64,000 nucleotides of DNA from an uncultured Hyphomicrobiales bacterium (GTDB lineage: Bacteria > Pseudomonadota > Alphaproteobacteria > UBA7879): NCBI GenBank assembly GCA_964402405.1, contig CAYOCE010000001.1, positions 435-64,434 of the forward strand, given 5' to 3'. Under the pieces are notes generated by a model that saw only the letters and a list, made by a program, of their open reading frames with translations, was not told the DNA's origin and made no database searches. Position numbers and translations under genes: made by a program. Below are positions 4,289 through 48,256 of this stretch, piece by piece (position 1 is the stretch's first letter; every line of letters begins with the position of its first letter).

Positions 4289-4801
4289 ATGCCTATTTAC
4301 AAAAAGGAAAGAATCAAAATGAAAACAAGCAAAATGAATATCCTGGAAACTTTTTTGGGAGGAGCAGTTCTTGTTTTTGCAGGCGTTCTATTAATTTTTG
4401 CCTATATAAGAAATGAAAAAGATACTATCAAAGGATATGTCATAACAGCCAAATTTGATAAGATTGATGGGTTGGTAGCAGGATCTGATGTGCGGATGAG
4501 TGGTATTAAGATTGGGAGTGTTGCGAATCAAGCACTAGATCCCACCTCTTATTTAGCTATTGTGAATATGAATATTGCTAATCACGTGAAGATTCCTACA
4601 GATTCATCGGCCTCTGTTGTGAGCGAAAGTCTTTTAGGGGGAAAATATATGGATGTTGTCCCCGGTGGTGATGATACGTTTCTAAAGCCAGGCGAAGCAA
4701 TTCAACACACTCAATCCTCAGTAAACTTTGAAAAAATGATTGGGCAAGCTATCTTTAGTAGTAAAGATAGCAAGGATAAAAAAGAAGAAACCAATAATTG
4801 A
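4289..4801 (+). CDS. mlaD: MlaD (Mce-domain) outer-membrane lipid asymmetry protein
   Basis: N-terminal TM anchor followed by an Mce domain (ITAKFDKIDGLVAGSDVRMSGIKIGSV...YLAIVNMNI). The true start is probably the internal Met at ~4319 (MKTSKMNILE). Confidence 0.8.
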   Translation: MPIYKKERIKMKTSKMNILETFLGGAVLVFAGVLLIFAYIRNEKDTIKGYVITAKFDKIDGLVAGSDVRMSGIKIGSVANQALDPTSYLAIVNMNIANHVKIPTDSSASVVSESLLGGKYMDVVPGGDDTFLKPGEAIQHTQSSVNFEKMIGQAIFSSKDSKDKKEETNN

Positions 4802-4804
4802 TCC

Positions 4805-5212
4805 ATGAACCAAATTACAAAATTATTTTTTTTGCTTCTTCTTTTGCTGTGTTCTCTAGGGATCTGTGCGCAAGAAAAGACCGATAGCGTAATTTTACAG
4901 GGTCTTGATAAGGTAACAGCCAAGGTTTACTCGGTGAACGCCCCCATAGGGTCCGTTGTGAAGTTTGGAAACCTTAAAATCATCGTGCACCAATGTCATA
5001 AAAGCAATCCAGAGGATCCCCCTGAATCCGTTGCCTATTTAGCAATTATAGACGCTAAAACCGGAGAGGATGAGCAAGTTATTTTTGATGGATACATGTT
5101 TGCTTCGTCCCCTGCAATTTCTTGTCTGGAACATCCTGTTTATGATGTGTGGATTAAAGAATGTAAGAGCTTGCCCAAGCATCGGACCTCCTCAGCAGAA
5201 GTCGGAGCTTAG
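4805..5212 (+). CDS. DUF2155-family secreted protein, the conserved MlaD neighbour in alphaproteobacteria
   Basis: Signal peptide plus LQGLDKVTAKV...HQCHK...PPESVAYLAI motifs characteristic of DUF2155. It sits immediately downstream of mlaD. Confidence 0.65.
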   Translation: MNQITKLFFLLLLLLCSLGICAQEKTDSVILQGLDKVTAKVYSVNAPIGSVVKFGNLKIIVHQCHKSNPEDPPESVAYLAIIDAKTGEDEQVIFDGYMFASSPAISCLEHPVYDVWIKECKSLPKHRTSSAEVGA

Positions 5213-5313
5213 ATACAGATCCTGGTTTTCACCAGAGTACAATTCATTTTTAAGTTGCCAAATATATGATTTATATTATATAGTAATAGTATAATAAATA
5301 AAAAGGTGTAAAA

Positions 5314-6078
5314 ATGATATATTATGTAAGGGAGTGCTCATCAAAAATAAATAGAAATATTTTTTCTTTTGTTTTTTTTCTTATATTATTTGCATTAATC
5401 TGTTTCTTTTCCTTGTCTTATATAGATCAACAAAACACATTGGAATTCTATAATAAGCAGCTCCAAATACTAACCGTAGATCTCAAAAAGTCTACCTCAA
5501 AGGAACTCGGAGAAGCTGAGCAAATTAAAGACTTGGAAAGAATCGTAGCTCAAGAAAAAAATATTATAGGGTCAGATGAAAATAAAATTAAAGAATACAA
5601 AAACTTATTGCAGGGGATTATGTCATCCGCTCAATATCAAGTATATAAATACTTTAAAGAAAACGTAAAAGAATACCCTGATATTTCTTTCTCAAATGAC
5701 AAATTTTTATTTAATCAAAAGGTTTATTTTTCCCCAGGATCCACGCGCCTAAGTAAAGAAGATCAAAAAACCATAGATCAAATAATACCAATTCTTAATC
5801 AGATGGAATCAAGGGTTCCACAACATCTAAATTGGGCACTACGAATTGAAGGTCATACAGATAACAAACCAGTTGATACAGATTTATACCCTTCAAATTG
5901 GTACCTTTCAACAGCACGAGCAGCTAAAGTAGTGGAATATCTAATTAAAAAGGGAATTAATTCCAAACACTTAATTGCTATAGGGTTTGGGGATAATAAT
6001 CCCATTTCAGACAATCAAACAACTGAAGGTAAATCTCAAAACAGACGTGTTGAATTTGTAATTGGATTCAAAGACTAA
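5314..6078 (+). CDS. OmpA/MotB-domain peptidoglycan-binding membrane protein
   Basis: N-terminal TM helix, a coiled-coil segment, and a C-terminal OmpA-like domain (NWALRIEGHTDNKPV...LSTARAAKVVEYLIKKGI...NRRVEFVI). Confidence 0.7.
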   Translation: MIYYVRECSSKINRNIFSFVFFLILFALICFFSLSYIDQQNTLEFYNKQLQILTVDLKKSTSKELGEAEQIKDLERIVAQEKNIIGSDENKIKEYKNLLQGIMSSAQYQVYKYFKENVKEYPDISFSNDKFLFNQKVYFSPGSTRLSKEDQKTIDQIIPILNQMESRVPQHLNWALRIEGHTDNKPVDTDLYPSNWYLSTARAAKVVEYLIKKGINSKHLIAIGFGDNNPISDNQTTEGKSQNRRVEFVIGFKD

Positions 6079-6155
6079 TACTATTTCCCAGAAATAAGCA
6101 TCCATCTGACCTGCAGCATTTTGGTCATTTGAATACTTATTTCTGGGAAATAGTA
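6079..6155. repeat. Perfect 20-bp inverted repeat (37-nt loop) immediately after the OmpA-family gene stop
   Basis: tactatttcccagaaataag (6079-6098) is the exact reverse complement of cttatttctgggaaatagta (6136-6155). No U-tract follows. It separates the OmpA-family gene from the three-gene cluster below. Confidence 0.6.
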
Positions 6156-6237
6156 TAAGAAAGTTCTTAAGAGAAAACTACAGAGGTATTGCATCTCTCT
6201 ATCAATTCATATACTCTAAAATAAATATAAAAAACTT

Positions 6238-7074
6238 TTGGGGGGAATTTTGATAAAGAGCATCCACATTTTTTCGTGCCTTTTTTTGGTGTTTTTGGGA
6301 GGATGTACCCGATTATCACAAAAGGAGAGTTTTTCCTTAAATAAAGGATCAAAACTAGGGCAATTTAAATACGTTATTCTAAAAGAACAAGATTTTTCCG
6401 GGTATAAAATAATAGGGCTATATGCTTTTTCTTCAGATTTCCGAAATTGTATATTTAAGAAAACGAACCTAAGTAGCAGTTCATTTATTAACTCAAATAT
6501 GAAAAATTCAGATTTTTCAGGAGCAATTTTAAATCAGATTATTTTTGATAAAAGCAACTTAGAGAACTCTAATTTCAACAATACAATGTCTACCTATCCC
6601 TCTTTTGAAAATGTAAATATCAACGAAAGTTCATTTGAAAATGCGTCTTATCAACTGGCAAATTTTTATAGTGCTCTGGGTGAAAAAGCTAGCTTTAATA
6701 AAGCACATATGATGTCTGCAACTTTTATGAACACTAATTTACGGGGCAGTTCTTTTGTTGAGGCGAATCTCAGTAATTCTAATTTTGAAAATGCTCAGTT
6801 AAAAGAAGCAGATTTTAGTAATGCCATTTTGAGTCGTTCTAATTTCAAAAATGCTGATCTAGGAGGGTGTGACTTCACGGGCGCGGATCTTAGTTTTGCA
6901 AATTTAAGTGGTGCAAATATGAGTGGGGCAACTTTCTCTAATACAAATCTTGTGGGAGCAAAAATTTGCGATGCGACTTTATCTGATGGCCAAAGGTCAA
7001 ATTTCTGTTCATCAAATTTTCCTAAACCATCAGGGGTCATGACAATTCTGGAACATACTAGGGCAGCCAAATGA
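6238..7074 (+). CDS. Pentapeptide-repeat lipoprotein
   Basis: Lipoprotein signal (LVFLGGC) followed by ~200 aa of tandem A(D/N)LSxxNFxxA pentapeptide repeats (ANLSNSNFENAQLKEADFSNAILSRSNFKNADLGGCDFTGADLSFANLSGANMSGATFSNTNL). The stop overlaps the next start (atga). Confidence 0.8.
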   Translation: MGGILIKSIHIFSCLFLVFLGGCTRLSQKESFSLNKGSKLGQFKYVILKEQDFSGYKIIGLYAFSSDFRNCIFKKTNLSSSSFINSNMKNSDFSGAILNQIIFDKSNLENSNFNNTMSTYPSFENVNINESSFENASYQLANFYSALGEKASFNKAHMMSATFMNTNLRGSSFVEANLSNSNFENAQLKEADFSNAILSRSNFKNADLGGCDFTGADLSFANLSGANMSGATFSNTNLVGAKICDATLSDGQRSNFCSSNFPKPSGVMTILEHTRAAK

Positions 7075-8021
7075 ACCGAAAAATTTTATTAATCTTTGTT
7101 TTCTTAGCTTTTGGATCTCGCTCTATTTTAGCGGATGGATCTCATTTTGTCATGGGAACAAACTTAGTAAGTCAGCTTTATTGGGTAATTGGAGCAAACT
7201 TATGTCAACTGATGCACTCCAAGAATGCTGGATTTGAATGTTTAGCAGAAAAATCAGATGGTTCTGTTGCTAATGTCTGGGGGCTTAAAGAAGGGCTATT
7301 TGATATAGCTTTAGCAGGAAAAGATACCGTTGAGCGTATGTATAAAGGGGATCCAGAAAATGGAGTTAATCCAATTTCTTCTCTTCGATTAATTATGCCC
7401 CTTTATGTCAATAAATTTACGATCATTACAAACCCTCAATCAAAAATTGGTACCCCCAATGACTTAAAAGGAAAAAAAATTGATATTGGTGTCAGAGGGT
7501 CAGAATCCTATAGGGCTTTTAAAGATTTTATGAAAATTAAAGGATGGACTGATAAAGATTTTGGAAAAATTTATGCATCAGAGCCATTTACACAAAAATC
7601 TAATTTATTAAAAAACAAAGTTGATGCCATTACTATATTTGAAGGAAGTCCAAATTCATGGGTTTGGCGTATTCTAGATGTATATCCTGGGCATATTCTA
7701 TCTTTAGATGCCCAAGATATATCAGCATTAAGTCAAAAATTCAAAAATTACATTCCTGTAACTATGGATGCAAAAATGTACCCCAATAATAACTATGTTA
7801 TTCAAACATTTGGAACAGAAGTATATTTGGTCGCAACAGAATCAACAAATCCAGATATTATATATACGTTCTTAAAAACAGTAGATCAAAATATGTATGA
7901 GTTAAAAAAAACGCACCCCGTTCTAGCAGATGTTTATACTTATAATGTAAAAAGAGAGAAACCGATCATTCCTCTGCATCTGGGTGCTGAACGTTACTTG
8001 ATTGAAAGAGGCATACTATGA
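7071..8021 (+). CDS. Periplasmic solute-binding-protein-like, TAXI/TRAP-type family, with no cognate permease nearby
   Basis: Signal peptide. GTNLVSQLYWVIGANL near the N-terminus and DLKGKKIDIGVRGSESYRAFKDFMKIKGW resemble TAXI-family receptors. The start overlaps the upstream gene and the stop overlaps the downstream secretin gene. Confidence 0.45.
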   Translation: MNRKILLIFVFLAFGSRSILADGSHFVMGTNLVSQLYWVIGANLCQLMHSKNAGFECLAEKSDGSVANVWGLKEGLFDIALAGKDTVERMYKGDPENGVNPISSLRLIMPLYVNKFTIITNPQSKIGTPNDLKGKKIDIGVRGSESYRAFKDFMKIKGWTDKDFGKIYASEPFTQKSNLLKNKVDAITIFEGSPNSWVWRILDVYPGHILSLDAQDISALSQKFKNYIPVTMDAKMYPNNNYVIQTFGTEVYLVATESTNPDIIYTFLKTVDQNMYELKKTHPVLADVYTYNVKREKPIIPLHLGAERYLIERGIL

Positions 8022-9847
8022 GTAAAAATGTGAAAATGGGGTTGTTTTCTAGTATGATTTTGGCTTTTGTGGCGTGTACCCCTCAAAAGAACCAACATAC
8101 TTTGGATCCTAAATCAAAAGCTAAAGCGGAAGATTTTATTGTGATGCTAAAAGAAAGCACTAACAATACTCTTAGCACTCATGAAATTGAAGGAATAGAG
8201 CTACTTTATAAGGGATCCTATCAGAAGGCATCTGAAAAATTTAGTTTGGCTCTGGCTTTTTCGCCCCAGTCTGGATCTGCTCATTTTTTAAATGCTCTTG
8301 CGTATCATTTATTGGCTAAAGAGGGAAATACAAGTAAAAATGAATTAGCTGAAGTTGGATATGGTCTTGCTAAAAACTTTTCACCCGATAATGTTTATGC
8401 ATCTTATTATCATGGTATTTTAAATTTTGAAAACAAGAAATATCGGGAAGCCCAACAAAACTTTGCAGATGCTCTAATTCTAAGGCCAAATGATCCTAAA
8501 ATTCTGTATGCTTTGAGTGTTGCCTCTTATTATTCCCATGATTTACAGGTGGCAGCGGGCGCTATTGCACAAGCTATACGTTTAGATCCAGCTTCTGCAA
8601 AGTATTTACATGCGGCAGCGTTAATTATGGCTGCGGAAGGCAAAGAACAAGAAGCCCAAGAATATACAAACAAATTAATAGAATCTGGGGCCTCTAAAGG
8701 ACAACTAGAATTTTTGTCGAAGAGAATTAAAGAGTGGAAACAATTTCATAACGGTCTGTTAAAAAAAGCAAGCTGGAGCATTGAAAATACTCAGGGTGCC
8801 CAATCAGATAAAACTGATTCAACAGAAGAAAAAAATCATGATGATGATATGATTATTGTAGATGTGGTGATTGTTTTGGCTCAAGAAAACCTCAATGAGG
8901 CGCAAGGCATGAATCTATTGTCTGGATTACAATTAACATTTGGGGCACCCAATACGACTATTACCGGTGGTACACAAACCCCTGGTTATTCAAACACGCG
9001 AAACATTGGAACTGCAGGTTCATTTTCTAAAAGTATTGTAACAAATATCAGTATTCCCGCAATTACCTATCAATTAAATATAGCCAATATACAAGGATCC
9101 AATACAGAGGTTCTCGCACGCCCCAGTCTGGTGGCGCGTAATGGAAAAATGTCCAAATTTTTTTCAGGAGACGTCTTAACAATTGGACTTGCAGGAAGTG
9201 CAGGAGGAAACCCTACTTATAAAGATAACAAGGTTGGGGTTAATTTACAGGTAACCCCTCGCATTTTAGAAGATGGTCAGGTCAATTTGCAAATTACTGC
9301 TTCTAGAAACTTTTTTACATCAACTAATACGAATGTTACTGGTGGTAATAATTCTTTCCAAAACAGCCTTCAGGTATCTGATACGGAAATCACTGCAGAT
9401 GTGGTTTTAAATATCGGAGATACTTTGATTCTAGGGGGGCTTAGCGAAAAACAACAACAAGTAAATACAGACTCCACGCCAATTTTAGGAGATATTCCCA
9501 TCATACAACATTTATTTAGTGCAAAAAAAACAGCGCTCATAAATCGGTCCGTTATTATTTTGGTAACACCTCGTTTTCCTTCTTACACTTATCAAACACA
9601 GAATACCCGGAAAAAAAATGCCCACTTTAAAGATGGAGATAACAAGCCTAGCAATCTTGATGAATTAAAGGCCCGTTATATTGATTGGTTCAAGCCCTAT
9701 CCTAACCTAGCTTCGGCCTTTCATCATATTGATAACTATAATCTCTATCGAGAGTTTAGGACAGGAGACGTACAACTAGAGCAATGGAATCGCATGGATG
9801 ATTTAATGGATCGCATACAATCAAGTATGGAGTTCTTATATTATTAG
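8018..9847 (+). CDS. TPR-repeat (pilotin-like) lipoprotein fused to a secretin C-domain
   Basis: Lipobox (ILAFVAC) and ~250 aa of TPR-like repeats, followed by a secretin domain (ARPSLVARNGKMSKFFSGDV...VGVNLQVTPRILEDGQVNL...TPILGDIPIIQHLFS...RSVIILVTPRF). No recognisable N0/N1 secretin domains. Confidence 0.7.
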   Translation: MSKNVKMGLFSSMILAFVACTPQKNQHTLDPKSKAKAEDFIVMLKESTNNTLSTHEIEGIELLYKGSYQKASEKFSLALAFSPQSGSAHFLNALAYHLLAKEGNTSKNELAEVGYGLAKNFSPDNVYASYYHGILNFENKKYREAQQNFADALILRPNDPKILYALSVASYYSHDLQVAAGAIAQAIRLDPASAKYLHAAALIMAAEGKEQEAQEYTNKLIESGASKGQLEFLSKRIKEWKQFHNGLLKKASWSIENTQGAQSDKTDSTEEKNHDDDMIIVDVVIVLAQENLNEAQGMNLLSGLQLTFGAPNTTITGGTQTPGYSNTRNIGTAGSFSKSIVTNISIPAITYQLNIANIQGSNTEVLARPSLVARNGKMSKFFSGDVLTIGLAGSAGGNPTYKDNKVGVNLQVTPRILEDGQVNLQITASRNFFTSTNTNVTGGNNSFQNSLQVSDTEITADVVLNIGDTLILGGLSEKQQQVNTDSTPILGDIPIIQHLFSAKKTALINRSVIILVTPRFPSYTYQTQNTRKKNAHFKDGDNKPSNLDELKARYIDWFKPYPNLASAFHHIDNYNLYREFRTGDVQLEQWNRMDDLMDRIQSSMEFLYY

Positions 9848-9854
9848 TATACCC

Positions 9855-9937
9855 CTCGTCTTTCAAACTGTGGATCGCAAAATTTACTGATTCACGCATT
9901 ACAACTACCAATCCACCCATTACATTTGTGGATTGTT
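9855..9937. repeat. Mosaic short repeat, copy C, with hairpins; shares modules with the nrdJ/fdxA leader elements
   Basis: ctcgtctttcaaactgtgg (9856-9875) matches the 5' module of elements A and B. tgattcacgcattaca and caatccac...gtggattg (9889-9936) match the tgattcacgcgttacacttgtgaatca module at 15022-15048. It lies between two convergent genes. Confidence 0.35.
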
Positions 9938-10045
9938 GCCTAACGGCCGTGGATCATTGCCTAAAGGTCTGAAATACTGTGGGTATAGTAGGACCTTTGC
10001 ATAACTCTTTCTTACCGGCGGAAGCCAGGGTGGTTGCAAACTAAC

Positions 10046-10081
10046 AAAAAACCCAGAAGATTACTCTTCTGGGTTTTTTAT
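10046..10081. terminator. Bidirectional rho-independent terminator between the secretin gene and tlc
   Basis: cccagaag(10052-10059)/cttctggg(10066-10073) hairpin with an A6 run upstream and a T6 run downstream. Confidence 0.65.
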
Positions 10082-10101
10082 TGTTTAGTAGATTAAAAGT
10101 C

Positions 10102-11646
10102 TCAAGACTTTTCTGCAGCCTTTTGTTCTTCAACCAAGGTTGTAAAGCGCTTGTTAAGGCGTATAACCGAGAACATCCAAATAAGACAAATCACGATCAC
10201 TGTGGGGCCTAAGATATAGGTGAGGCTTGCCAAAGAGACACTCCCACCAATTACCGCAAGCATCGTTGATTGAATGAATGCTCCACCGGATTTACCCAGG
10301 CGTCCACCGATAACCTCAACCGCTGCTTGACCCTTGGTCTTAGCCTCAGGATCCAGAGGGATATAAGCCATCTGCTTAGTGGAATCAAATAGGGAGTACT
10401 TGGTTCCCTTGGACATCACGTTTTGGATCAATCCAACAATCACAGCCACCATGACAACCGTCGTTCCCATCAATGGCATTGTTGGATCATGGGTCACTCC
10501 ATCCCAAACAACGAGGAAGAAAATAGAGGATGTCACCAAGATCATCAATGGCGTAATGATCGCAGCCTTGAGCCAGCTGAAGCGACGCAAGATATTGTTT
10601 CCCACAACCATCAGAGCAATCGTAATCGCCCCTGTCCATGTGGTGAATACACCCATGAAGTTGTTATAGTCGTTCTTGTCTGGGAACGCGATCTTCATCT
10701 GTCCCTTCCACACGCCCTCAACCAAGTTAATGGCGATTCCATAGGATAGAACCAAAACAGCAATGAGCAAAAGATAAGGGTTGCTGAGGATATATTTAAA
10801 GCTTTGACCAACAGAAAGCTTTTCTTTCTTTTTCTTACCAGATCCTTGACCTGGTTGATAAAGAGCTGGGTCAGTTAAAACGTTCTTGTTCATCCAACGA
10901 TAGATGGTCAGAATTAAAAGTCCAGAAACCATAACTGCCCCCATGAGGAATTTTAGGTTGATACCAAAGGTATCCACGTTAGCTGGAAGACTTTTAGCAT
11001 ACTGGGCACACATCATAATAGTAGGACCAGCAACCACCAATCCCAGGTTTCCAATCATGCCAAACAATCCATAAAAACGCTTAGCTTCGTTAACTTTGGT
11101 AATTTCGTTGGCAAACTGCCAGAACAACATAGACAACACCACACTTCCCCATAGTTCTGAGAAAATGTAGAAGAGGCTAAAGCTCCAGTTACCCACAACA
11201 GGGATTGCCCAGTGGAGGTTAGGAAGCTTTGCTTGCCACGTGGTAATTGTGTCTAAGCTTGCATGAAAAAGTTCTATATTAGGGTAGATCAAAAAGGCAA
11301 AAGACCCGAAGAAAATCAAGAAAGGCGCCACAATGACATAGAATAATTTTTCCCGATCAAACACGTTTGCAAGCTTGATGAAAATAACCATAAACAAAAT
11401 AGCCGAAGGTGTAACCCCATAAAGCTTGAGGAATCCAAGGCTTTCTGCCCCGCCTCCTGGCATGTTCACAACCAACGTATCCTTGGTATCACGAACAATG
11501 TTGTATATAAAAAGGATACACATCATCATAAGGCCCATGGGTAAGAACTTCTTTATTTCGAAGTTATAAATGGGCCAGAATATTGCTTTAAAACCCGAAA
11601 ACTCTGGCTTATCAGCAGCTTTATTGGTAGATGACATGATTTTCAC
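10102..11646 (-). CDS. tlc: ATP/ADP translocase (nucleotide transporter, NTT/Tlc family)
   Basis: 514-aa 12-TM protein with the characteristic Tlc N-terminus (FWPIYNFEIKKFLPMGLMMMCILFIYNIVRDTKDTLVV) and overall Tlc-family architecture. Confidence 0.9.
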   Translation of the reverse strand: MKIMSSTNKAADKPEFSGFKAIFWPIYNFEIKKFLPMGLMMMCILFIYNIVRDTKDTLVVNMPGGGAESLGFLKLYGVTPSAILFMVIFIKLANVFDREKLFYVIVAPFLIFFGSFAFLIYPNIELFHASLDTITTWQAKLPNLHWAIPVVGNWSFSLFYIFSELWGSVVLSMLFWQFANEITKVNEAKRFYGLFGMIGNLGLVVAGPTIMMCAQYAKSLPANVDTFGINLKFLMGAVMVSGLLILTIYRWMNKNVLTDPALYQPGQGSGKKKKEKLSVGQSFKYILSNPYLLLIAVLVLSYGIAINLVEGVWKGQMKIAFPDKNDYNNFMGVFTTWTGAITIALMVVGNNILRRFSWLKAAIITPLMILVTSSIFFLVVWDGVTHDPTMPLMGTTVVMVAVIVGLIQNVMSKGTKYSLFDSTKQMAYIPLDPEAKTKGQAAVEVIGGRLGKSGGAFIQSTMLAVIGGSVSLASLTYILGPTVIVICLIWMFSVIRLNKRFTTLVEEQKAAEKS

Positions 11647-11799
11647 CTTTCTTTAAAAATAGTTAACGTTAAAAAATAAAAAACCCCTTTAAGGATAGAC
11701 TAGCATCAAATTTTTGATTTTCAAAGTATCCAGAAAAGGCCATAGATTCTAAGAAATAATCTTAGAAGAACAAACCTATATACCTAAAAAATTTCCTTG

Positions 11800-13101
11800 T
11801 CAATCCCCACCTTTCTTCAAATCAATTGGATATTTTTTGGTTAAATAATGGAGGACAATTAATCCTGGAATGGCAGCCAGAATAGAGATGGCAAAAAACT
11901 GGGGCCATGTTGTATTATCGGCGATAAAGCCAGAGGTGGATTGCACCCCAATCCGGGTAAATGCCATGAGAGAGGAGAACAAGGCATATTGGGTGGCTGT
12001 AAAGGAGATATTGCAGAGGCTGGAAAGATAGGCCACAAAAGCCCCCGTCATCATACCCCCAGATAACCCTTCAAATCCCACAGATACATATAGCCAGAAA
12101 ATAGAAGGCCCTGTTTCAGCAAGAACAAAGAACATAGCATTGGAAATTGCATGAAGGACACCGCTAATCAAGAGCGTTTTCATTAGCCCGAAGCGAGCAG
12201 AAAGAACGCCCACCAACATGCCTCCAAATAAGGCAACGAATACCCCAAAAGATTTGGAGGCGGTTCCTATGTCCGTTAAACTAAAGCCGAGTTCCTTGTA
12301 AAATATATTCCCCATGGGGCCTATGATGTTATCTCCAAAGCGATACAGAAGAATAAACAACAGAATTAATGGCCAACCGGGTTTTTTCATGAAATCCAAG
12401 AAAGGGTTGAAGACAGCATCCTGAACCCAGGCCATTATATTGGGATAAGAATGCTCAACTTGTCGACTGATGGTAGGTTCTTTACACAAAAGAGTTGTTA
12501 CAATTCCAACCCCTACACAAATGGCCATGATAATATACATGGTTTCCCAACCATAGGTGTCTGCTAACACCAAAGCGCCACCCCCTGCCATAATCATACC
12601 CAGGCGGTATCCATTGACCTCCATGGCGCCAGCAGCGGCTAATTCTTCGCGGGGAACCGTTTCAATACGATAGGCATCGATCACAATGTCTTGACTTGCG
12701 GAAGCAAAAGCGACTAACACTGCCCAAATAGCTGTTTGATGAAGATGATGAAGAGGGTCAGAAAATCCAAGCCCCAAGATAGCCACAACCAAGGCTAACT
12801 GAGTCAGTAATAACCACGACCGACGTCGACCTAAAAGGTTATGGAGAATGGGAATCTTAACTTTGTCAATAATAGGAGACCAGGTGAACTTCCACATATA
12901 GGCACTCCCCACAAGGGTGAAAAGGCCAATGGTTGATTTACTAAGGCCGAAGGACTGCAACCACATGGAAAGAGTGGAAAGAGTTAGTAATAGAGGCAAT
13001 CCACTTGAAAACCCTAATAACCCAATCACCAACATCCTGGGTTGGATATAAAGGGCAAAGGTAGAAAGGATGGATTTACGGTTATTTGAAACGGATGACA
13101 T
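11800..13101 (-). CDS. ampG: AmpG-family MFS muropeptide permease
   Basis: LGFSSGLPLLLTLSTLSMWL...GLFTLVGSAYMWKFTWSPIIDKV...LGRRRSWLLLTQ matches AmpG signature regions. Confidence 0.75.
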   Translation of the reverse strand: MSSVSNNRKSILSTFALYIQPRMLVIGLLGFSSGLPLLLTLSTLSMWLQSFGLSKSTIGLFTLVGSAYMWKFTWSPIIDKVKIPILHNLLGRRRSWLLLTQLALVVAILGLGFSDPLHHLHQTAIWAVLVAFASASQDIVIDAYRIETVPREELAAAGAMEVNGYRLGMIMAGGGALVLADTYGWETMYIIMAICVGVGIVTTLLCKEPTISRQVEHSYPNIMAWVQDAVFNPFLDFMKKPGWPLILLFILLYRFGDNIIGPMGNIFYKELGFSLTDIGTASKSFGVFVALFGGMLVGVLSARFGLMKTLLISGVLHAISNAMFFVLAETGPSIFWLYVSVGFEGLSGGMMTGAFVAYLSSLCNISFTATQYALFSSLMAFTRIGVQSTSGFIADNTTWPQFFAISILAAIPGLIVLHYLTKKYPIDLKKGGD

Positions 13102-13135
13102 AAGTTACTCCTTTTTATGGCTAGCTTACTTAAGC

Positions 13136-14398
13136 CTAGCCGATTAAAACACTAAATGGCAAGGCAATTAAAGAGTCAGAAAATTTTAAAGGCTCTTGCC
13201 CGCCGTATAAAATTAGCCCTTTGGTAGTTGATGAAGAAGTCGCCTCAATAAAATCTTTTAACCCCTCAAAATCTTTTTGAGTTAATGATTCTGCAAATTT
13301 GATTTCTATTCCCCAGAGCTGAGTTCCTCTTTCTAAAACAAAATCTACTTCTTTTCCAAGATACGTTCTATAAAAATAGATTTGTGTAGGAATTGTTGCA
13401 TAAATTATTTTTCTTAACTCTGCATATACCCATGTTTCAACCACTGCTCCCAACTGAGGATGATCTTTCAAATGATTAGGAGAGAGTATGCTAAGCAAAA
13501 AACACATAATCGCCGAATCATTCACATACGTTTTTGACATCTTCACGAGTCTTTTTTTTGTGTTTTGATGCCATGGTTGTAACTCATGAGACTGGAAGGT
13601 TATTTTTAGGATTTCCAAATATCGCGCTACTGTACGCTGATCTAGACTTGTGTCTAAGGCTAAGTTATTCATGTTGAGAAGATTACCGCTCCTCATCCCA
13701 ACCAACCTTAAAAGTTTACTGAATCCAACAATATCTATGAGATTATTTAAATTCCTTACATCTTTTTCTATATACGCCTGTTGATAAGAAGAACACCATC
13801 GATGCGTAAAATCAGTCTGCTGCGTAAGAGCAAGATTTGGAAATCCTCCAAAATAGCATTTCTCTAAAATGGCATCTCGCTTTAGGGGGGTAATTTCTTT
13901 TAATTTTCTTCTGTAATAAGAAATAATAGACTCTACATCACTTGTTTCAAATAATTTAGTTAGTAAATCGGAAGGTGATTTTTTTAAGTAAAGCTCGGAC
14001 ATACTAAGCCCTTCCAAGGTCACAATGTCCATACGCCCTGCCAAGCTTTCCATCACCCCTGGATAGGATAATATGTTGGCCGAGCCGGTTAGTAAAAAGC
14101 GACCAGGAGCGCGATTTTGATCAATATTTTTTTTAAGAGCCCGCATCAAATCTGGGACGCGCTGGATTTCATCTATCGCAACAGATCCCTCGAATTGACT
14201 CAAGAATCCATCAGGGTCGGCAGACGCTGCCTCCAATGCCCCCAAGTCATCTAGACTGACATAATGATCTACTAGCTTTTCTGCCACAAGTTGCCCAATC
14301 ATAGTAGATTTGCCAACTTGCCGAGCTCCGTTAATCAAAACAGCCGGAAAATACTTTAAGGACTCATATACATGTTTTATAAGGTGTCTTTTGATCAT
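13136..14398 (-). CDS. AAA+ ATPase with C-terminal DUF4143 domain
   Basis: Walker A (INGARQVGKST) and the DUF4143-type C-terminus (EVDFVLERGTQLWGIEIKFAES). Confidence 0.7.
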   Translation of the reverse strand: MIKRHLIKHVYESLKYFPAVLINGARQVGKSTMIGQLVAEKLVDHYVSLDDLGALEAASADPDGFLSQFEGSVAIDEIQRVPDLMRALKKNIDQNRAPGRFLLTGSANILSYPGVMESLAGRMDIVTLEGLSMSELYLKKSPSDLLTKLFETSDVESIISYYRRKLKEITPLKRDAILEKCYFGGFPNLALTQQTDFTHRWCSSYQQAYIEKDVRNLNNLIDIVGFSKLLRLVGMRSGNLLNMNNLALDTSLDQRTVARYLEILKITFQSHELQPWHQNTKKRLVKMSKTYVNDSAIMCFLLSILSPNHLKDHPQLGAVVETWVYAELRKIIYATIPTQIYFYRTYLGKEVDFVLERGTQLWGIEIKFAESLTQKDFEGLKDFIEATSSSTTKGLILYGGQEPLKFSDSLIALPFSVLIG

Positions 14399-34231: not shown

Positions 34232-36037
34232 TCATTTAGTTAAAAGAAATTGAAACATTTTATAGTCGGGTTTTTTATAATAAGCCTCGAAAAAAGATTT
34301 AAATTTTTTACAACACTCAGTATAGTAAGTTTTGTCTTCTAGTAATTTTTCAACAACCTTACTCCCTTCTTCTATGCGACTAATTTGAAAAGATGCATCC
34401 GCCATTTTATCAACATCAATCTGTATATCAGATTTTATGAAAAGAGCAGGTATTCCTCTGGCCGCCGCACTAAAGCTAACAGAGCTTGAATTGTAAAAAA
34501 CTAAATAGCATTCGTCAATGAGGGCATCCCAATTTAAATCAGAAATTACAGAATTAATTTTTTTGTCTTTCAAAGTTTTTTCAATTATTTTTTTTGCATC
34601 TTGTGACATATAAGGGTGAAAATTAACAACCAGCGTTATATTTTTTAAAAGAGAATCAGTAAGATTTTCCATAATTTCAGAGACCTTGTTTACCAGCTCA
34701 AGGGAGTCATTTAGCTGAATAGAACAGCTACATAAAATTTTTCTTTTTGTTGATCTAGAAAATTTTTTAAGATGATCTGTAGCATCTTCTAAAGAAGAAA
34801 GCCTAACATTACCCAGCAATTTATAGTCTAAGAATCCTATATCCTTCAATCTTTTTCCAAATATTTCATCACTTAATAGTATGGTAGGGCTAATTTTTTT
34901 ACTAATGTAGGCTTGGGATGGGTAACATGTTAAATAATCCTGTGCCACAGGAAAATGTTGATAAGCAAAAACCTTACCTTTGGGAAACTGCGTACGAAAA
35001 GAAAGACTTAAGAGTTTTTCCCAAGGTTGATTTTCATAGGGGTATACTAATGTAATGCTAGACTCTTCAATTTCTCTGAAAATATTTTGAGAAGCATAAT
35101 AGGTTTCAAGTGCCAATGACATCCTATAATTTAAGGCATCCTTAAGGCAAAACCACTTCCACAAACTTGAAAAATTTATATCGTCAATCTTAAAGCGGTG
35201 ATTGAAATACCTCAGGAAGCGAAAGGATACGACAAAAGAATAAAGCACTTCCCTAATTTTAACAAAATCTTGGATAAATAAAGAACTTTTATTTTCTTTT
35301 AAAGAATTTTTTATAATTTTATAAAAAGGAAAATTAAAATCTAAGGGTTTCCCTATCACTGCCAAGTCAATATTTGATTTTTTTAGATGAGAAAGAAAAT
35401 CTCCAAAATATCTATCTTTGAAGAATAAATTTTCAGGATTAAATGATTCTAATCCAATCCAATTTACACATAAAACCTTAGATTTTTTAACAATAGATAA
35501 ATCAATGGGTGTCTTATGATAGATTCTTAAAAATTTTAAAATTAAAATTTTCCAAAAAGCTTTAGAAACTTCTCGCATTTTCCTCCATAAAAATCCCAAC
35601 ATTCTTTTAAGGAGGAAAAAATAATTAATCCTGCTACTTACTTCAAATCCATTATTTTTTAAAATTTTAGAATAAATAAAAACCTGTTCATCATCATCAC
35701 AGATAAAAACTACATCTTTATATTTTGGAAGAACCTCCTTGATAATTGCAAGTGAGTTTAAAATGTATAAGGAAAAATTTTCAAGGCAAAGATTATTTTC
35801 AGCAAGATCGCTGGCGAGCCATAAAGAATCTGAAACATCTGGAATGTTTTTATCTAGATTGATAAGAGTGTTTTTATATTCTAATAATATCTTTTTTCTG
35901 TGAACAGATAGATCCTTGACTGGGACTTTTTTCTTTTTGAGATAGAGAAAATTTTTAATTTTTACGCCTAAAAAATAAACATGCGTATGTCTTTCATAAG
36001 TAAAATTTCCTTTTTTTGTTGAAATAACCAGTGTCAT
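34232..36037 (-). CDS. Large GT-B-like 'HP-motif' protein, paralog 1 (KpsS/KpsC/TagF-like capsule glycosyltransferase candidate)
   Basis: C-terminal VVNFHPYMS ... LIDECYLVFYNSSSVSFSAAARGIPAL pattern, shared with 42876-44717 and 52989-54155. Confidence 0.35.
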   Translation of the reverse strand: MTLVISTKKGNFTYERHTHVYFLGVKIKNFLYLKKKKVPVKDLSVHRKKILLEYKNTLINLDKNIPDVSDSLWLASDLAENNLCLENFSLYILNSLAIIKEVLPKYKDVVFICDDDEQVFIYSKILKNNGFEVSSRINYFFLLKRMLGFLWRKMREVSKAFWKILILKFLRIYHKTPIDLSIVKKSKVLCVNWIGLESFNPENLFFKDRYFGDFLSHLKKSNIDLAVIGKPLDFNFPFYKIIKNSLKENKSSLFIQDFVKIREVLYSFVVSFRFLRYFNHRFKIDDINFSSLWKWFCLKDALNYRMSLALETYYASQNIFREIEESSITLVYPYENQPWEKLLSLSFRTQFPKGKVFAYQHFPVAQDYLTCYPSQAYISKKISPTILLSDEIFGKRLKDIGFLDYKLLGNVRLSSLEDATDHLKKFSRSTKRKILCSCSIQLNDSLELVNKVSEIMENLTDSLLKNITLVVNFHPYMSQDAKKIIEKTLKDKKINSVISDLNWDALIDECYLVFYNSSSVSFSAAARGIPALFIKSDIQIDVDKMADASFQISRIEEGSKVVEKLLEDKTYYTECCKKFKSFFEAYYKKPDYKMFQFLLTK

Positions 36038-42875: not shown

Positions 42876-44717
42876 CTATTTTGGTATAATATTAAGAAGC
42901 CTTTCGTAGGACATTGTATCATTAAATGGATTGTAATAATTTTTTAAAAAAGATGATCCATTAATGTAACTCAGAGGCTGTCTTTTTTCTGTGCATTCTA
43001 ACAAATCCTTGTGAAGAGTGGTGACAAGATCATCAGAGTTCTTAAAAAGAACCCCATCTTGCAGTAAGGATTTTTTGCATTCATCTGTATAAAATTCTGA
43101 TTGTATCAAGCAGTAAGACTTTAAACCGCAAGCCATAGCTTCTAGTAAAGAGGTAGACGGACGATCGGTAATGAAATAATCCCCTTCCACTAAAAAATTT
43201 TCTAGTGGTAAAGAATTAACAAAATAAACTCTTAGATCATCTCTGAAAAGAAATCTGAGGGCTGAGTGATAACCATCACCACTAGGGTGGCCTTTTAAAA
43301 TTAGGTCAAAATCTACATCAGTTTTTAGTAGAGACTTTATCAATTCCCTTTGTTGATCAAAGTCTTTAAGACTTGGAGGATGATCAAGTGTTACTCTTAC
43401 TCCATCATTAACTGCTTGAATTAAATAAATAATTAAAGGCTTTCCTGATTTTTTATAAATTGATTTACTTTTTTTATTTAATACTTCTTTTCTTAAATAA
43501 TCTATCTGTGGGGATCCTATAGAATGAATATTAATTTTATCAAAATTCCCCTCTTGCTTTATTTGCTTTTGGACTTGATTCCCCCAAACAAAGTAGTCTG
43601 TAACAAAGGGGTATTCCAAAAAAGCATTAAGCTTATCCTTCAGTATCCCTAAGGATCCATGATGAAAGCAATATACTTTTTTATTATGAAAGATAAATAT
43701 TTTGGCTAAAGCCTTTGATTCAAACGTATTGAACCCTGTAGATAAAATACACCTCCAAGTCATTTCCTTGGTTTTTTTTTCATAAAATTTTATTGTTTTA
43801 AATGCGCTTTGTAAGAAGGAATCCATAGTAGATACAAGTATCCCCTTGTAATATTCCTGGTAATTCACTCTCATAATTTCAAAATCATTGGGCTGTAGGT
43901 TGCTATTAACTATATCATCGACGTCAAATTTTTTTGATGTAAGTTGTGGAATATTATTTATCGTATCAAAATTTTTCAACTTTCCAAAAAAATCTCGATT
44001 ATATACGCCGATACATAATATGTGTTTTTTTGAAAAAACTTTTTGTAAAAAATTCTTGCATCTCCCTATAAAAGACACAGGAATTGAATTATCTGCAAAT
44101 TGCTTAAGGATTGTTTTAGATTCTAATTCAGGTCTATAACCTGATATACTATTTTTTGGATCGTAGTAGCCAACTTTAGTTAGGTTTCTATCTTTAAATA
44201 CTGAATTTATTTCAAGATCCAAAGAGTGGTGTGTATGGTATGGATAGCTAGGGTAGGAAAAACTGGGTTCCTTAAAAGGAACATAGTATATATCCACAAT
44301 AGCACCCAATTTTTTTTTCAAGGCCAAAAATTCATATATCCTTAATTCAATGCTATCACACCATGTTCGTAAGTAATAAAATGCAAACTGAGAAAATACC
44401 ATGTCATATTTTTTGAGTTCTGGATAATTGTCAAATATCTTTTCATCTAATTTACTTACTATTTTTGAAAGAGATTCGTAAGACTCATCAAAAATATAAT
44501 GCTGGAAACTATTATAGTTGTAGAAATCTGTAATTCTTGCAATTTTAACATTTTCTTTTTCAAGAAACAAAAGAGCTGTATCCGTGATTGCTACCCATAG
44601 AATGTCATTTTCTGCTATTTTTGTTTGAGAAAAATATTCTTTAAATATATTAATTTGTTCAGGGAACTGAACAATAGCAATCCCTTTAAAATCACCTAAT
44701 ATTTCAGTCATTAACAC
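42876..44717 (-). CDS. Large GT-B-like 'HP-motif' protein, paralog 2
   Basis: ILKGHPSG ... ITDRPSTSLLEAMACGLKSY pattern, as in paralogs 1 and 3. Confidence 0.35.
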   Translation of the reverse strand: MLMTEILGDFKGIAIVQFPEQINIFKEYFSQTKIAENDILWVAITDTALLFLEKENVKIARITDFYNYNSFQHYIFDESYESLSKIVSKLDEKIFDNYPELKKYDMVFSQFAFYYLRTWCDSIELRIYEFLALKKKLGAIVDIYYVPFKEPSFSYPSYPYHTHHSLDLEINSVFKDRNLTKVGYYDPKNSISGYRPELESKTILKQFADNSIPVSFIGRCKNFLQKVFSKKHILCIGVYNRDFFGKLKNFDTINNIPQLTSKKFDVDDIVNSNLQPNDFEIMRVNYQEYYKGILVSTMDSFLQSAFKTIKFYEKKTKEMTWRCILSTGFNTFESKALAKIFIFHNKKVYCFHHGSLGILKDKLNAFLEYPFVTDYFVWGNQVQKQIKQEGNFDKINIHSIGSPQIDYLRKEVLNKKSKSIYKKSGKPLIIYLIQAVNDGVRVTLDHPPSLKDFDQQRELIKSLLKTDVDFDLILKGHPSGDGYHSALRFLFRDDLRVYFVNSLPLENFLVEGDYFITDRPSTSLLEAMACGLKSYCLIQSEFYTDECKKSLLQDGVLFKNSDDLVTTLHKDLLECTEKRQPLSYINGSSFLKNYYNPFNDTMSYERLLNIIPK

Positions 44718-46054: not shown

Positions 46055-46648
46055 TTATTTATACATGTAAATTGTGAAATCATGGGGTAAATACTCATGC
46101 CTTAAAACAATTTTTTTTGTTAATCCTGCACAAAACTCCAATGTCTTAATGGGATCTGCATAAAACTCATTCTCTTCTTGGTGTAGGGCCCAAGAACTAA
46201 GAGAATTGAATGCTACACCCTTTTGAGCTAAGGAGAACATATGTTTTATTAAATCTTTCATAGTTTCTTCAGGGTTTGATTGAATTAAGTAAAAAATTCC
46301 ATTAGCAATGAGAAAATCTTTTTTCTTTGTATAGTCTAACAGATTTTTGTGTTTAAAAAGATCCTTATCATATTTTGATTTGCATAGATTTATCATCTTT
46401 TCAGAAAGATCAATACCTTCATATTGAACCTCTCCAAATTTTTTTTTCAAATATACATAAAAATCTCCCGTACCACACCCAACATCTAAGATATTAATTG
46501 GTTCTTGATCAAAAAAATCTAAAAATACCTTAAATTTTCTTTCCTGACTTTCTTTACGCCCATAATCGCATGATTGGTGGGAGTCACCATATTTTTCAAC
46601 AAGAGTGTCATAATATTTTCCAATATCTGTACGATTATCTATCTGCAT
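46055..46648 (-). CDS. Class I SAM-dependent methyltransferase
   Basis: ILDVGCGTGDF motif I. Confidence 0.7.
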   Translation of the reverse strand: MQIDNRTDIGKYYDTLVEKYGDSHQSCDYGRKESQERKFKVFLDFFDQEPINILDVGCGTGDFYVYLKKKFGEVQYEGIDLSEKMINLCKSKYDKDLFKHKNLLDYTKKKDFLIANGIFYLIQSNPEETMKDLIKHMFSLAQKGVAFNSLSSWALHQEENEFYADPIKTLEFCAGLTKKIVLRHEYLPHDFTIYMYK

Positions 46649-47678
46649 GAAAATACTCCCGTATATGTTTTATGACCAATGCTTGTTCCCTCTTTTTTAG
46701 GCTAGGATAAAGAGGTAAAGACAAGTTTTTTAAAAATGAAATTTGGGCATTTGGATAATCCTTAAACGAATCGGCCCAAGGATGGACTGGTAGTTCTGCA
46801 AAAATTCCTTGAGAATTTAGATGCTTCTTAAGACTGACTATTTCATTTTCAGATATACGTAATACATAGCGATACCAAATTCTGCCTATAGAATTTTTTG
46901 GTAATTGAACCCCATATTGTTCTAGGTCTTTCAGTTGCTCATTATATCTTGTTGCGAGATGAGTCCTCTTTTCTATTATTTCTCCTAATTTATTTAACTG
47001 ACAGATCCCTAAAGCACCTTCAATATCTGTCATTTTATTATTAAATTTGGATTTATCGGGCTTTTGATCTACATAGCTACGCCATTCTGTTATTTTTTCT
47101 TTATAGCTCTCAGAGTTTGTTAAAATTGCCCCCCCTTCACCTGTTCCTATAAGCTTTGTTGCATAAAATGATAAGACTACAAAATCTCCCACTGACCCAT
47201 ATAATTTTCCATCAAAAGCATGTGCGCAATCTTCAATGATAGGAATGTTCGTTTTTTCTTTTACTTTTCTTATATTAACAGGCTCTCCAAAAGTATGAAC
47301 CACGATTAAGGCCTTCAATTCAGAAAAATTGGAGCACTCATCAATCGTATCGCTATCGAAAGAGTTATCCAAAGGAACAGGTATTGCCCCTACGGATAAT
47401 ATGGCATTAACTATAGCAACACATGAATATGCTGGAAAACCCACCTTATCATTTTCTTTTATATTTATAGAAATTAAAGAAAGCCGTAACGCAGAAAAAC
47501 CAGAATCTAGACAAATTGCAAACTTTTTATCCACTGTTGCAGCTAATTTTTCCTCAAACTCCTTGACCTTTTTACCCATAGCTATATGACCAGATTGGAT
47601 AACTTGCTTAACCGCTTTTTCTTCGAATTGATCTAAGTATGGTTTGCTGTGAGGTATTAACATTTTCATATGAAACAT
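46635..47678 (-). CDS. pseC: DegT/DnrJ/EryC1-family PLP aminotransferase (PseC candidate)
   Basis: DegT fold with the SFYATK lysine motif, adjacent to the pseH, I, G, F and B candidates. Confidence 0.75.
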   Translation of the reverse strand: MFHMKMLIPHSKPYLDQFEEKAVKQVIQSGHIAMGKKVKEFEEKLAATVDKKFAICLDSGFSALRLSLISINIKENDKVGFPAYSCVAIVNAILSVGAIPVPLDNSFDSDTIDECSNFSELKALIVVHTFGEPVNIRKVKEKTNIPIIEDCAHAFDGKLYGSVGDFVVLSFYATKLIGTGEGGAILTNSESYKEKITEWRSYVDQKPDKSKFNNKMTDIEGALGICQLNKLGEIIEKRTHLATRYNEQLKDLEQYGVQLPKNSIGRIWYRYVLRISENEIVSLKKHLNSQGIFAELPVHPWADSFKDYPNAQISFLKNLSLPLYPSLKKREQALVIKHIREYFHADR

Positions 47679-47809: not shown

Positions 47810-48256
47810 TCATATTGTTTTTTTCAAGTAGTAATGATTTTCATCATTATCAATAATGAGAAATCCATTTTTTATAAAAAAACACTTGGATGTGCTGTTA
47901 TCAATTGATACATCCGCTAAAATACTCTGATTTTTTTCTAAAACATTTTGTATTAGGTATGAAAGAACTTGAGAGCCAATGTTTTTTCCTCTAAATTGGC
48001 TCAGTAAAAAAATAGAAATTTTATAAACACCCTCTGTAACAAAATTTAATCTCACTTGCCCAACTTTTACAGTATCATTAATAATAATAAAATTAAAGCT
48101 GCGTAAATCAGAAAGAACGTTTTGAAACCATATATCATGTTCTTCTCTGGTAACTTTTCTCTTTTCGCTTCCTAAAGGCCATATAGACGGATCATTTCGC
48201 CATAGAAATAGAGTATCAGCATCAGATTGTTCTATTCTTTTTAAAAGCAAAGACAT
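47810..48256 (-). CDS. pseH: GNAT N-acetyltransferase (PseH candidate)
   Basis: FRGKNIGSQVL acetyl-CoA motif, 148 aa, immediately downstream of the NeuB-family synthase. Confidence 0.6.
   Translation of the reverse strand: MSLLLKRIEQSDADTLFLWRNDPSIWPLGSEKRKVTREEHDIWFQNVLSDLRSFNFIIINDTVKVGQVRLNFVTEGVYKISIFLLSQFRGKNIGSQVLSYLIQNVLEKNQSILADVSIDNSTSKCFFIKNGFLIIDNDENHYYLKKTI

Follow-up and report, generated by a model that had tools for sequence, protein, structure and literature searches.

A lipidated TPR-secretin without periplasmic N domains from an uncultured Hyphomicrobiales bacterium as a candidate stand-alone outer-membrane conduit

Can a secretin be of use in the outer membrane if it has nothing with which to reach the inner membrane? 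To our knowledge, all secretins studied to date form the outer-membrane end of ATP-driven machines that span the envelope and that they reach via their periplasmic N domains, and we know of no characterised secretin that does not carry such an N-domain stack. The question is raised by a gene in a 64,000-nucleotide stretch of DNA from an uncultured Hyphomicrobiales bacterium (positions 435 to 64,434 of contig CAYOCE010000001.1, assembly GCA_964402405.1), and this whole stretch is referred to as the window in the following. The gene encodes a lipoprotein composed of a tetratricopeptide repeat (TPR) domain, a flexible linker, a secretin core with the canonical barrel and loop motifs and a helical C-terminal domain, and we refer to it as TPR-secretin. 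Its layout is as follows:

8018..9847, + strand: TPR-secretin lipoprotein gene, an intact open reading frame (ORF) with ATG start, 609 aa plus stop
8018..8077, + strand: signal peptide and lipobox, aa 1-20 (...ILAFVA-C20), read from the sequence
8108..8773, + strand: TPR domain, aa 31-252, 13 helices in both AlphaFold2 (AF2) models
8774..8848, + strand: acidic disordered linker of about 25 aa, aa 253-277, with a predicted local distance difference test score (pLDDT) of 31-39 in AF2
8849..9577, + strand: bare secretin core, aa 278-520, from PF00263, the GspD-model alignment, AF2 and Foldseek
9578..9844, + strand: family-specific helical C-terminal domain, aa 521-609, from conservation and AF2

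An AAGAGG-like ribosome-binding site can be read 6-13 nt 5' of the ATG. The lipobox F-V-A-C20-T agrees with the family consensus LxGC, in which the Cys column is at least 90% conserved, and a lipobox-like motif was found in 58 of 87 database members, some of them being N-terminally miscalled. Signal peptide, F-V-A-C20 and the Thr at position +2 together make up an outer-membrane lipoprotein signal, as TPR pilotins have. The Pfam models for TPR match aa 62-220, and two AF2 monomer runs, based on alignments of 46 and 84 sequences and agreeing in topology, place the TPR helices with a pLDDT of about 90. Within the family N92, Y96, H97, G114, Y115, G133, Y171, R236 and W240 of this domain are invariant or nearly so. 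The Secretin family PF00263 was matched at aa 359-519 with E 2e-30 (106 bits against a gathering threshold of 27.5) as well as in all 46 sampled family members (46/46), and Foldseek aligned the core to the solved secretins 8jvb, GspD, InvG, PilQ, RcpA and pIV (PDB entries 8jvb, 5wq8, 6pee, 6ve4, 8odn and 7ofh) with E-values from 1e-17 to 1e-10. Judged by these statistics, the assignment of both the secretin and the TPR part lies far beyond chance. The core begins at the first barrel hairpin (MIIVDVVIVLAQE..GMNLL), ends with the ..VTPRF motif and contains PILGDIPIIQHLF at aa 488-500, which corresponds to the conserved secretin loop PxLGDIPxxGxLF. A first-pass annotation of this DNA had described the region from PILGDIPIIQHLF to VTPRF as the gate or lip; following textbook secretin structures, we take PILGDIPIIQHLF to be the amphipathic helical loop instead. 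It had also described the TPR repeats as fused directly to the core, where we find the disordered acidic linker. The segment from W240 to M278, 37 aa long in the window protein, is rich in A, G, P and S and has a median length of 68 aa in the family (range 30-120).

In classical secretins the N0 domain contacts GspC or PilP-type partners of the inner-membrane platform. A scan with hidden Markov models (HMMs) for Secretin_N (PF03958), STN (PF07660), GspD-N0 (PF21305), PF13629, BON and AMIN gave a match in none of 46 family members (0/46) at E≤0.01. In both AF2 models aa 278-519 consist of beta strands throughout, with a four-residue stretch inside PILGDIPIIQHLF as the sole helix, and because aa 253-496 contain no helix other than a three-residue turn, an N domain of the beta-alpha-beta-beta-alpha type would be impossible between the TPR domain and the loop. 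Furthermore, the GspD model aligns aa 279-519 to its own positions 338-588 of 600, which leaves no room for an N3-type domain, nor for N0 to N2. By sequence and models, N0, N1, N2 and N3 are all missing, and no stack of N0 plus at least one ring-building domain of the N1/N3 type was found. The first-pass annotation had proposed a secretin without N0 and N1, and both the scan of the 46 relatives and AF2 bear this out; its use of PF03958 as the N0 model needs correction, as PF03958 models the N1-N3-type domain.

Behind the core, where the protein had been thought to end at VTPRF, 89 further conserved residues (aa 521-609) follow. They carry the motif LYREFRTGDVxLExW with conserved F580, G583, D584 and W590 and finish with the consensus F-[LI]-[YFHW]-[YF]-COOH, the window protein ending in FLYY. 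Such an aromatic terminus is present in ~70/87 members from the database and ~78/83 from the genome loci (~80-95%). AF2 predicts five helices at aa 528-608 with a pLDDT of 46-72, and the run with 84 sequences gave the same topology with only slightly higher confidence for this domain. There is no Pfam homologue, and a profile search of the PDB returned nothing below E 0.1. Searched alone, the domain retrieved seven short fragments, three with and four without a Secretin Pfam match, and no other architecture.

TPR-secretin is not a singular fusion and belongs to a large family. A word-indexed search returned 87 cluster representatives of the same length and architecture at E≤1e-51, and after a gap the classical secretins started only at E≥4e-14. 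An exhaustive phmmer search of 1.84 billion representatives (clusters at 50% identity) gave 440 representatives at E≤1e-30, and relatives were present in 488 of 185,579 species when one genome per species was scanned. The main hosts are Rhodospirillales and other Alphaproteobacteria, Burkholderiales and Gallionellaceae, followed by some Gammaproteobacteria, Desulfuromonas, Bdellovibrionales-like organisms and a few other phyla. At the phylum level the spread has to be read with caution, since two of the loci, L057 (Elusimicrobia GWA2_69_24) and L059 (Rokubacteria GWC2_70_16), show identical match coordinates and scores and the same 1,555-aa neighbour and are probably one contig binned twice or a cross-bin contamination. 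A mobile-element origin was also considered and rejected, as no homologue was found in 72,556 plasmids or 2.9 million viral contigs. Three loci (L012 4027-~7600, L039 7956-11764 and L044 5706-end) each contain two tandem paralogous TPR-secretin genes, which raises the possibility of hetero-oligomeric pores. The first-pass annotation had proposed a phylogeny of the secretin core, and in a neighbour-joining tree of the core alone the family is monophyletic and stands apart from the GspD, CpaC and PilQ-type references. In agreement with this, none of the named secretin models reached its cut-off on the window protein. The GspD model for type II secretion systems (T2SS; TIGR02517) gave 81.4 bits against 351, the PilQ model of type IVa pili (TIGR02515) 79.5 against 284, with neither an AMIN nor an STN domain, the MshL model 63 against 250, the SctC model for type III secretion systems (T3SS; TIGR02516) 50.6 against 238, and the HofQ model a weak match far below its cut-off. 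Regarding RcpA/CpaC of the Tad system, PF13629 and BON were not matched, the CpaC references form a separate clade and no tad genes are adjacent. By sequence and model, the protein is a secretin in its core only, falling short in the N-domain feature and in every named subfamily model, and it belongs with its relatives to a distinct, widespread and unnamed secretin clade. The fusion family and its operon were not described in the literature that we searched.

In order to see what the family is encoded with, we called ORFs in 80 related loci and clustered the neighbours. ORF calling was restricted to ATG, which makes some gene starts and lengths approximate and left five loci without a called secretin ORF. 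No GspE/PilB-type ATPase, GspF-like platform protein or pilin was present among the recurrent neighbour clusters of the 80 loci, no ATPase, platform or pilin gene of T2SS, type IV pili (T4P), Tad or T3SS recurred near the family there, and gsp genes were found neither in these loci nor in the scanned parts of the window. One could still regard the protein as an orphan secretin that serves a T2SS, T4P or Tad machine encoded elsewhere in the genome, in which the TPR fusion replaces a separate pilotin. Secretin genes are sometimes unlinked from their own systems, relatives are labelled 'CpaC/TadD', 'PilF' or 'GspD' in the source databases when they are not simply 'hypothetical', and the pairing of a TPR lipoprotein with a secretin resembles TadD-RcpA and PilF-PilQ. 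We nevertheless consider this explanation very unlikely, as all N domains including the platform-contacting N0 are missing, 0 of 80 loci have classical machine genes nearby and the family forms its own clade with conserved, unrelated partners. Because the N0-N3 stack is missing, the pore should be unable to dock on a GspC or PilP-type platform or a pseudopilus, and this is why we read TPR-secretin as a self-targeting secretin that would serve as a stand-alone conduit in the outer membrane and receive its periplasmic partners in trans. We see about equal reason to accept and to doubt this reading. That the pore does not dock onto the inner membrane had already been suggested at first pass, and the gene context and the missing N0 fit well with it.

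The genes that accompany TPR-secretin in the window are:

6238..7074, + strand: pentapeptide-repeat lipoprotein gene, 278 aa from a TTG start, with signal peptide and lipobox FLGG-C
7071..8021, + strand: gene for a TAXI-family periplasmic solute-binding protein, 316 aa, with Sec signal peptide
10046..10079, + strand: strong hairpin resembling an intrinsic terminator, with a 15-bp stem and a T run, located after the secretin stop and before the convergent TLC gene

The pentapeptide protein matches PF00805 with E 9e-34. For the TAXI protein, PF16868 (E 4e-50), TIGR02122 (168.5 bits against a cut-off of 84.35) and solved TAXI proteins (E 4.5e-33) agree, and by these matches it is a canonical, full-length TAXI solute-binding subunit. 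The stop of the pentapeptide gene overlaps the TAXI start and the TAXI stop overlaps the secretin start, in both cases by ATGA, and through these overlaps the three genes are translationally coupled. The same order of pentapeptide, TAXI and secretin genes is found in the closest relative (74% identity). A membrane subunit of a tripartite ATP-independent periplasmic (TRAP) transporter of the fused DctQM type is not present among the window neighbours at 4289-14398, and a membrane subunit beside the TAXI gene is also missing in most of the related loci. Located 160 bp 5' of the operon and following MlaD and DUF2155 genes, a gene at 5314-6078 (+) encodes a protein that combines a coiled coil and an OmpA/MotB-like peptidoglycan-binding domain with a transmembrane helix at its N-terminus. 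We considered it as an energiser or anchor and excluded it from the module because it is retained only in the 74%-identical relative and is absent from the Holosporaceae locus L006 and elsewhere.

Convergent with the operon are the genes of a TLC-family ATP/ADP translocase at 10102-11646 (-; E 3e-197) and of an AmpG muropeptide permease at 11800-13101 (-), the latter adjoined by an AAA_14 plus DUF4143 ATPase gene at 13136-14398 (-). The translocase points to an obligate intracellular lifestyle, and it fits that the nearest species genomes in the one-genome-per-species scan are metagenome-assembled genomes (MAGs) of Holosporaceae with 38-39% identity. A long co-directional gene cluster at 27000-52000 (-) has a GC content of 0.31-0.37, compared to 0.40-0.46 elsewhere in the window. 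It encodes NeuB (48256-49305), a DegT aminotransferase (46635-47678), a second aminotransferase and a GDSL-like protein, together with two ORFs of about 600 aa (34232-36037 and 42876-44717) without Pfam match, and resembles a nonulosonic-acid or surface-glycan island. We discarded this 27-52 kb island as a cargo source for the secretin, since it is unlinked and does not recur at other loci.

Across the family, partner frequencies were counted in the 60 loci having at least 1.5 kb on both sides. A pentapeptide partner lies within two genes of the secretin in 38 of them, usually 6-18 bp 3' of it, and its orthologue (cluster 1) adjoins the secretin in 53 of all 80 loci. TAXI genes were found in 23/60 loci, usually overlapping the secretin start by 4 bp, with the orthologue (cluster 3) immediately 5' of the secretin in 33 loci; partners with a binding-protein fold occur in 33/60, SBP_bac_3-like proteins in 8/60 and giant proteins of 1,000-3,000 aa in 11/60. 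Common to the pentapeptide partners are a signal peptide and, at the C-terminus, a CxAxMPDGxxGxC motif (CDATLSDGQRSNFC in the window protein); most of them also show an N-terminal CxxC[DN]LRY motif, and on these grounds they form a specific periplasmic, disulfide-capped subfamily. The type of neighbour tracks the secretin subclades. Three groups combine the pentapeptide gene with TAXI, with an SBP_bac_3-like protein, or with TAXI, ABC_sub_bind and a sensor-MFS fusion. A further clade (loci L036, L052, L064, L079, L080 and L063, and also L017, L031, L056, L074, L081, L082 and L084) has no pentapeptide gene; its secretins lie beside giant proteins with Tectonin or ricin-lectin repeats, FG-GAP/ASPIC proteins and a secreted protein of 170 aa. 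Wherever their N-terminus is visible the giant neighbours carry Sec signal peptides, and the lectin-like, FG-GAP/ASPIC and 170-aa proteins are possible cargo.

Several other genes were observed around the family. The MFS transporter of the third group carries a fused N-terminal extension of about 230 aa that includes a transmembrane helix, and it recurs with the ABC_sub_bind protein beside the TAXI-secretin pair (L003/L004 5002-8936, L033 5958-7892, L013, L016, L040, L043 and L050), a combination of binding protein and MFS carrier that is unusual. In at least 12 loci, including L046 12655-15877, L039 2704-3249 and 15987-17225, L020 8235-9995 and L051 11783-13636, cyclic-nucleotide signalling genes lie at a distance of 2-7 genes from the secretin; they encode CHASE2-class III cyclases, cNMP-binding-GGDEF and cNMP-binding-DASS fusions and small cNMP-binding proteins. 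In Glaciecola punicea ACAM 611 (L026, 8979-16227) TAXI, secretin and pentapeptide genes are joined by those for a DcaP-like porin, an SBP_bac_3 protein and a Na+:dicarboxylate symporter, and locus L021 of a Colwellia MAG is placed beside it.

How could such a secretin reach the outer membrane? The liposecretins HxcQ of P. aeruginosa and BfpB are self-piloting, as they carry their own N-terminal lipobox and need no separate pilotin. TPR-secretin shares with them the lipobox on the secretin polypeptide itself; liposecretins, however, retain the N0/N-domain stack and are part of complete T2SS or type IVb pilus (T4bP) clusters, whereas TPR-secretin has a TPR domain in place of the N domains and no T2SS/T4bP cluster around it. 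Phage pIV has N0 and N3 and works together with the phage pI/pXI inner-membrane ATPase complex. As the smallest characterised secretin (PDB 7ofh) it is similar to TPR-secretin in its compact core (Foldseek E 2e-10), which in our protein comes without N0 and N3, and the family has no relative in the 2.9 million viral contigs. The third comparison is RcpA-TadD (PDB 8odn), where the C-terminus of the secretin binds into the groove of the TPR lipoprotein TadD (PMC10499894). Both pair a small secretin with a lipidated TPR protein, of about 11 helices, their secretin cores resemble each other (phmmer E 9e-14, Foldseek E 1e-13), and the pilotin-binding extreme C-terminus of RcpA has a counterpart in the conserved aromatic tetrapeptide of TPR-secretin. 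In contrast to RcpA-TadD, TPR and secretin are part of one polypeptide, and the C-terminal domain of 89 aa is helical and unrelated to that of RcpA, which itself keeps an N-terminal domain and sits in a tad operon with ATPase and pilins. By analogy, TPR-secretin may functionally be most like a liposecretin, or like an RcpA-TadD pair collapsed into one chain, and self-piloting is plausible.

We propose the following course of events. After lipidation at Cys20 the protein would be transported by the Lol system, sorting to the outer membrane being expected because residue +2 is Thr, and it would oligomerise there into a gated secretin barrel. The TPR domain, anchored by its lipid at the inner leaflet and connected to the periplasmic base of the barrel by a flexible linker of 25-120 aa, should therefore come to lie along the outside of the barrel, where TadD, PilF and AspS bind their secretins. 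There it might act as a built-in pilotin or stabilising collar, probably gripping the C-terminal domain of its own or an adjacent subunit. Such a role in cis is the most economical reading. Of the candidates for a periplasmic ring or plug that is supplied in trans, the rigid beta-helix of the pentapeptide protein is the best, a proposal based on the precedent of the cyanobacterial PilQ nozzle, with which a pentapeptide protein (NIES39_A07680) co-purifies and for which it has been modelled as the lower ring (PMC12475490).

This precedent leads to a further explanation, namely that TPR-secretin is a nozzle for an exopolymer which is guided to the pore by the TPR domain, as in the cyanobacterial PilQ/pentapeptide slime nozzle or in AlgK/AlgE, BcsC and PgaA. 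The association of pentapeptide protein and secretin is indeed common to both, being physical in the cyanobacterium and genetic here (6-18 bp in most loci), AlgK/AlgE, BcsC and PgaA likewise couple a TPR module (lipidated in AlgK) to an outer-membrane pore without a dedicated envelope-spanning ATPase machine, the TPR profile matches the TPR region of BcsC (E 7e-9), and the glycan island is located 17 kb away in the window. The differences are considerable. The slime-nozzle PilQ is a T4P secretin of full length that has N and AMIN domains, the pentapeptide partners of TPR-secretin, to which NIES39_A07680 is likened by its association with a secretin, have their own motifs, CxxC[DN]LRY and CxAxMPDGxxGxC, and pores of the AlgE/BcsC/PgaA type are monomeric 16-18-stranded barrels encoded in synthase operons. 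Moreover, genes for a glycosyltransferase, a synthase or a Wza/Wzc-type protein do not recur next to the family, the glycan island, unlinked and on the opposite strand, does not show up at other loci, and the TPR matches are generic. We therefore regard an exopolymer nozzle as improbable.

Several observations also speak against our own reading of TPR-secretin as a self-piloting, stand-alone conduit. The first-pass annotation had described the TPR repeats as pilotin-type, which holds for the fold, as Pfam and AF2 agree on the TPR domain, PilF and PilW are among its best natural structural matches and its all-TPR fold, with about 5-6 repeats, can be superposed on PilF or PilW. It does not hold for the sequence, with the PilW model TIGR02521 giving 20.6 bits against a cut-off of 154. 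Pilotins are missing from the best 60 PDB matches of the TPR profile, which are generic TPR proteins only, and at the sequence level the domain is generic rather than pilotin-specific. We looked for covariation as a sign of the C-terminal tail binding in the TPR groove and had to abandon this idea; since 16 of 84 members have no aromatic C-terminus and retain all conserved TPR residues, covariation lends no support to such binding. The AF2 monomers show no confident docking of the tail on the TPR domain, and confidence in the C-terminal domain itself is low to moderate (pLDDT 46-72, monomer). About one third of the loci have no pentapeptide gene, no energy source for gating was identified, and solute importers (SDF, DASS, MFS and DctM) are frequent among the neighbours, which fits uptake as well as, or better than, export.

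Uptake has thus to be weighed for the traffic through the pore. Here TPR-secretin would be a gated port of the outer membrane through which a bulky nutrient, for example an oligomer or a polymer fragment, enters, to be captured by the binding proteins and passed on to inner-membrane carriers. Three classes of binding proteins (TAXI, SBP_bac_3 and ABC_sub_bind) recur beside the gene together with MFS, SDF, DASS and DctM carriers, the TAXI partner is full-length and canonical, the window genome has an ATP/ADP translocase and so scavenges host metabolites, and inward traffic has a precedent in the DNA-uptake porin HofQ, whose model weakly matches TPR-secretin. Set against this are the missing TRAP membrane subunit beside the window TAXI gene, the sister clade that pairs its secretin with giant lectin-like proteins instead of binding proteins, the porin already present in the Glaciecola cluster and the lack of an apparent mechanism for opening the gate from outside, and we consider uptake rather unlikely, although less so than the other alternatives. 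Returning to the stand-alone conduit, its clients would be the exchangeable neighbours, either the TAXI, SBP_bac_3-like and ABC_sub_bind proteins or, in the sister clade, the giant Sec-exported lectin-like proteins, and this is the most speculative part of the model. Between letting a bulky nutrient pass inward and exporting these folded periplasmic proteins or releasing them at the surface, we lean slightly towards the latter, because the DcaP-like porin of the Glaciecola cluster would serve for small solutes, which would not need a secretin, and because export also covers the giant-protein clade.

In summary, TPR-secretin, the disulfide-capped pentapeptide protein and an exchangeable binding protein might together constitute a new secretin transport system that is confined to the outer membrane and works without ATPase or pseudopilus, passing folded proteins out or bulky nutrients in, and that has been kept even in a reduced intracellular alphaproteobacterium. 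This would amount to a new type of secretion or uptake system; taken as a whole, the proposal has a substantial chance but is less likely than not to be right. The family provides a natural single-chain pilotin-secretin for studying the targeting and assembly of secretins, and at least two cultured hosts, Glaciecola punicea ACAM 611 and a Limnohabitans isolate, are at hand for experiments. It also points to an envelope function, so far unexplained, that occurs in intracellular bacteria of the Holosporaceae-like kind as well as in many free-living Pseudomonadota. If TPR-secretin is functional, either secretin pores can be used and gated without a piston, or this task falls to a novel type of periplasmic adaptor.

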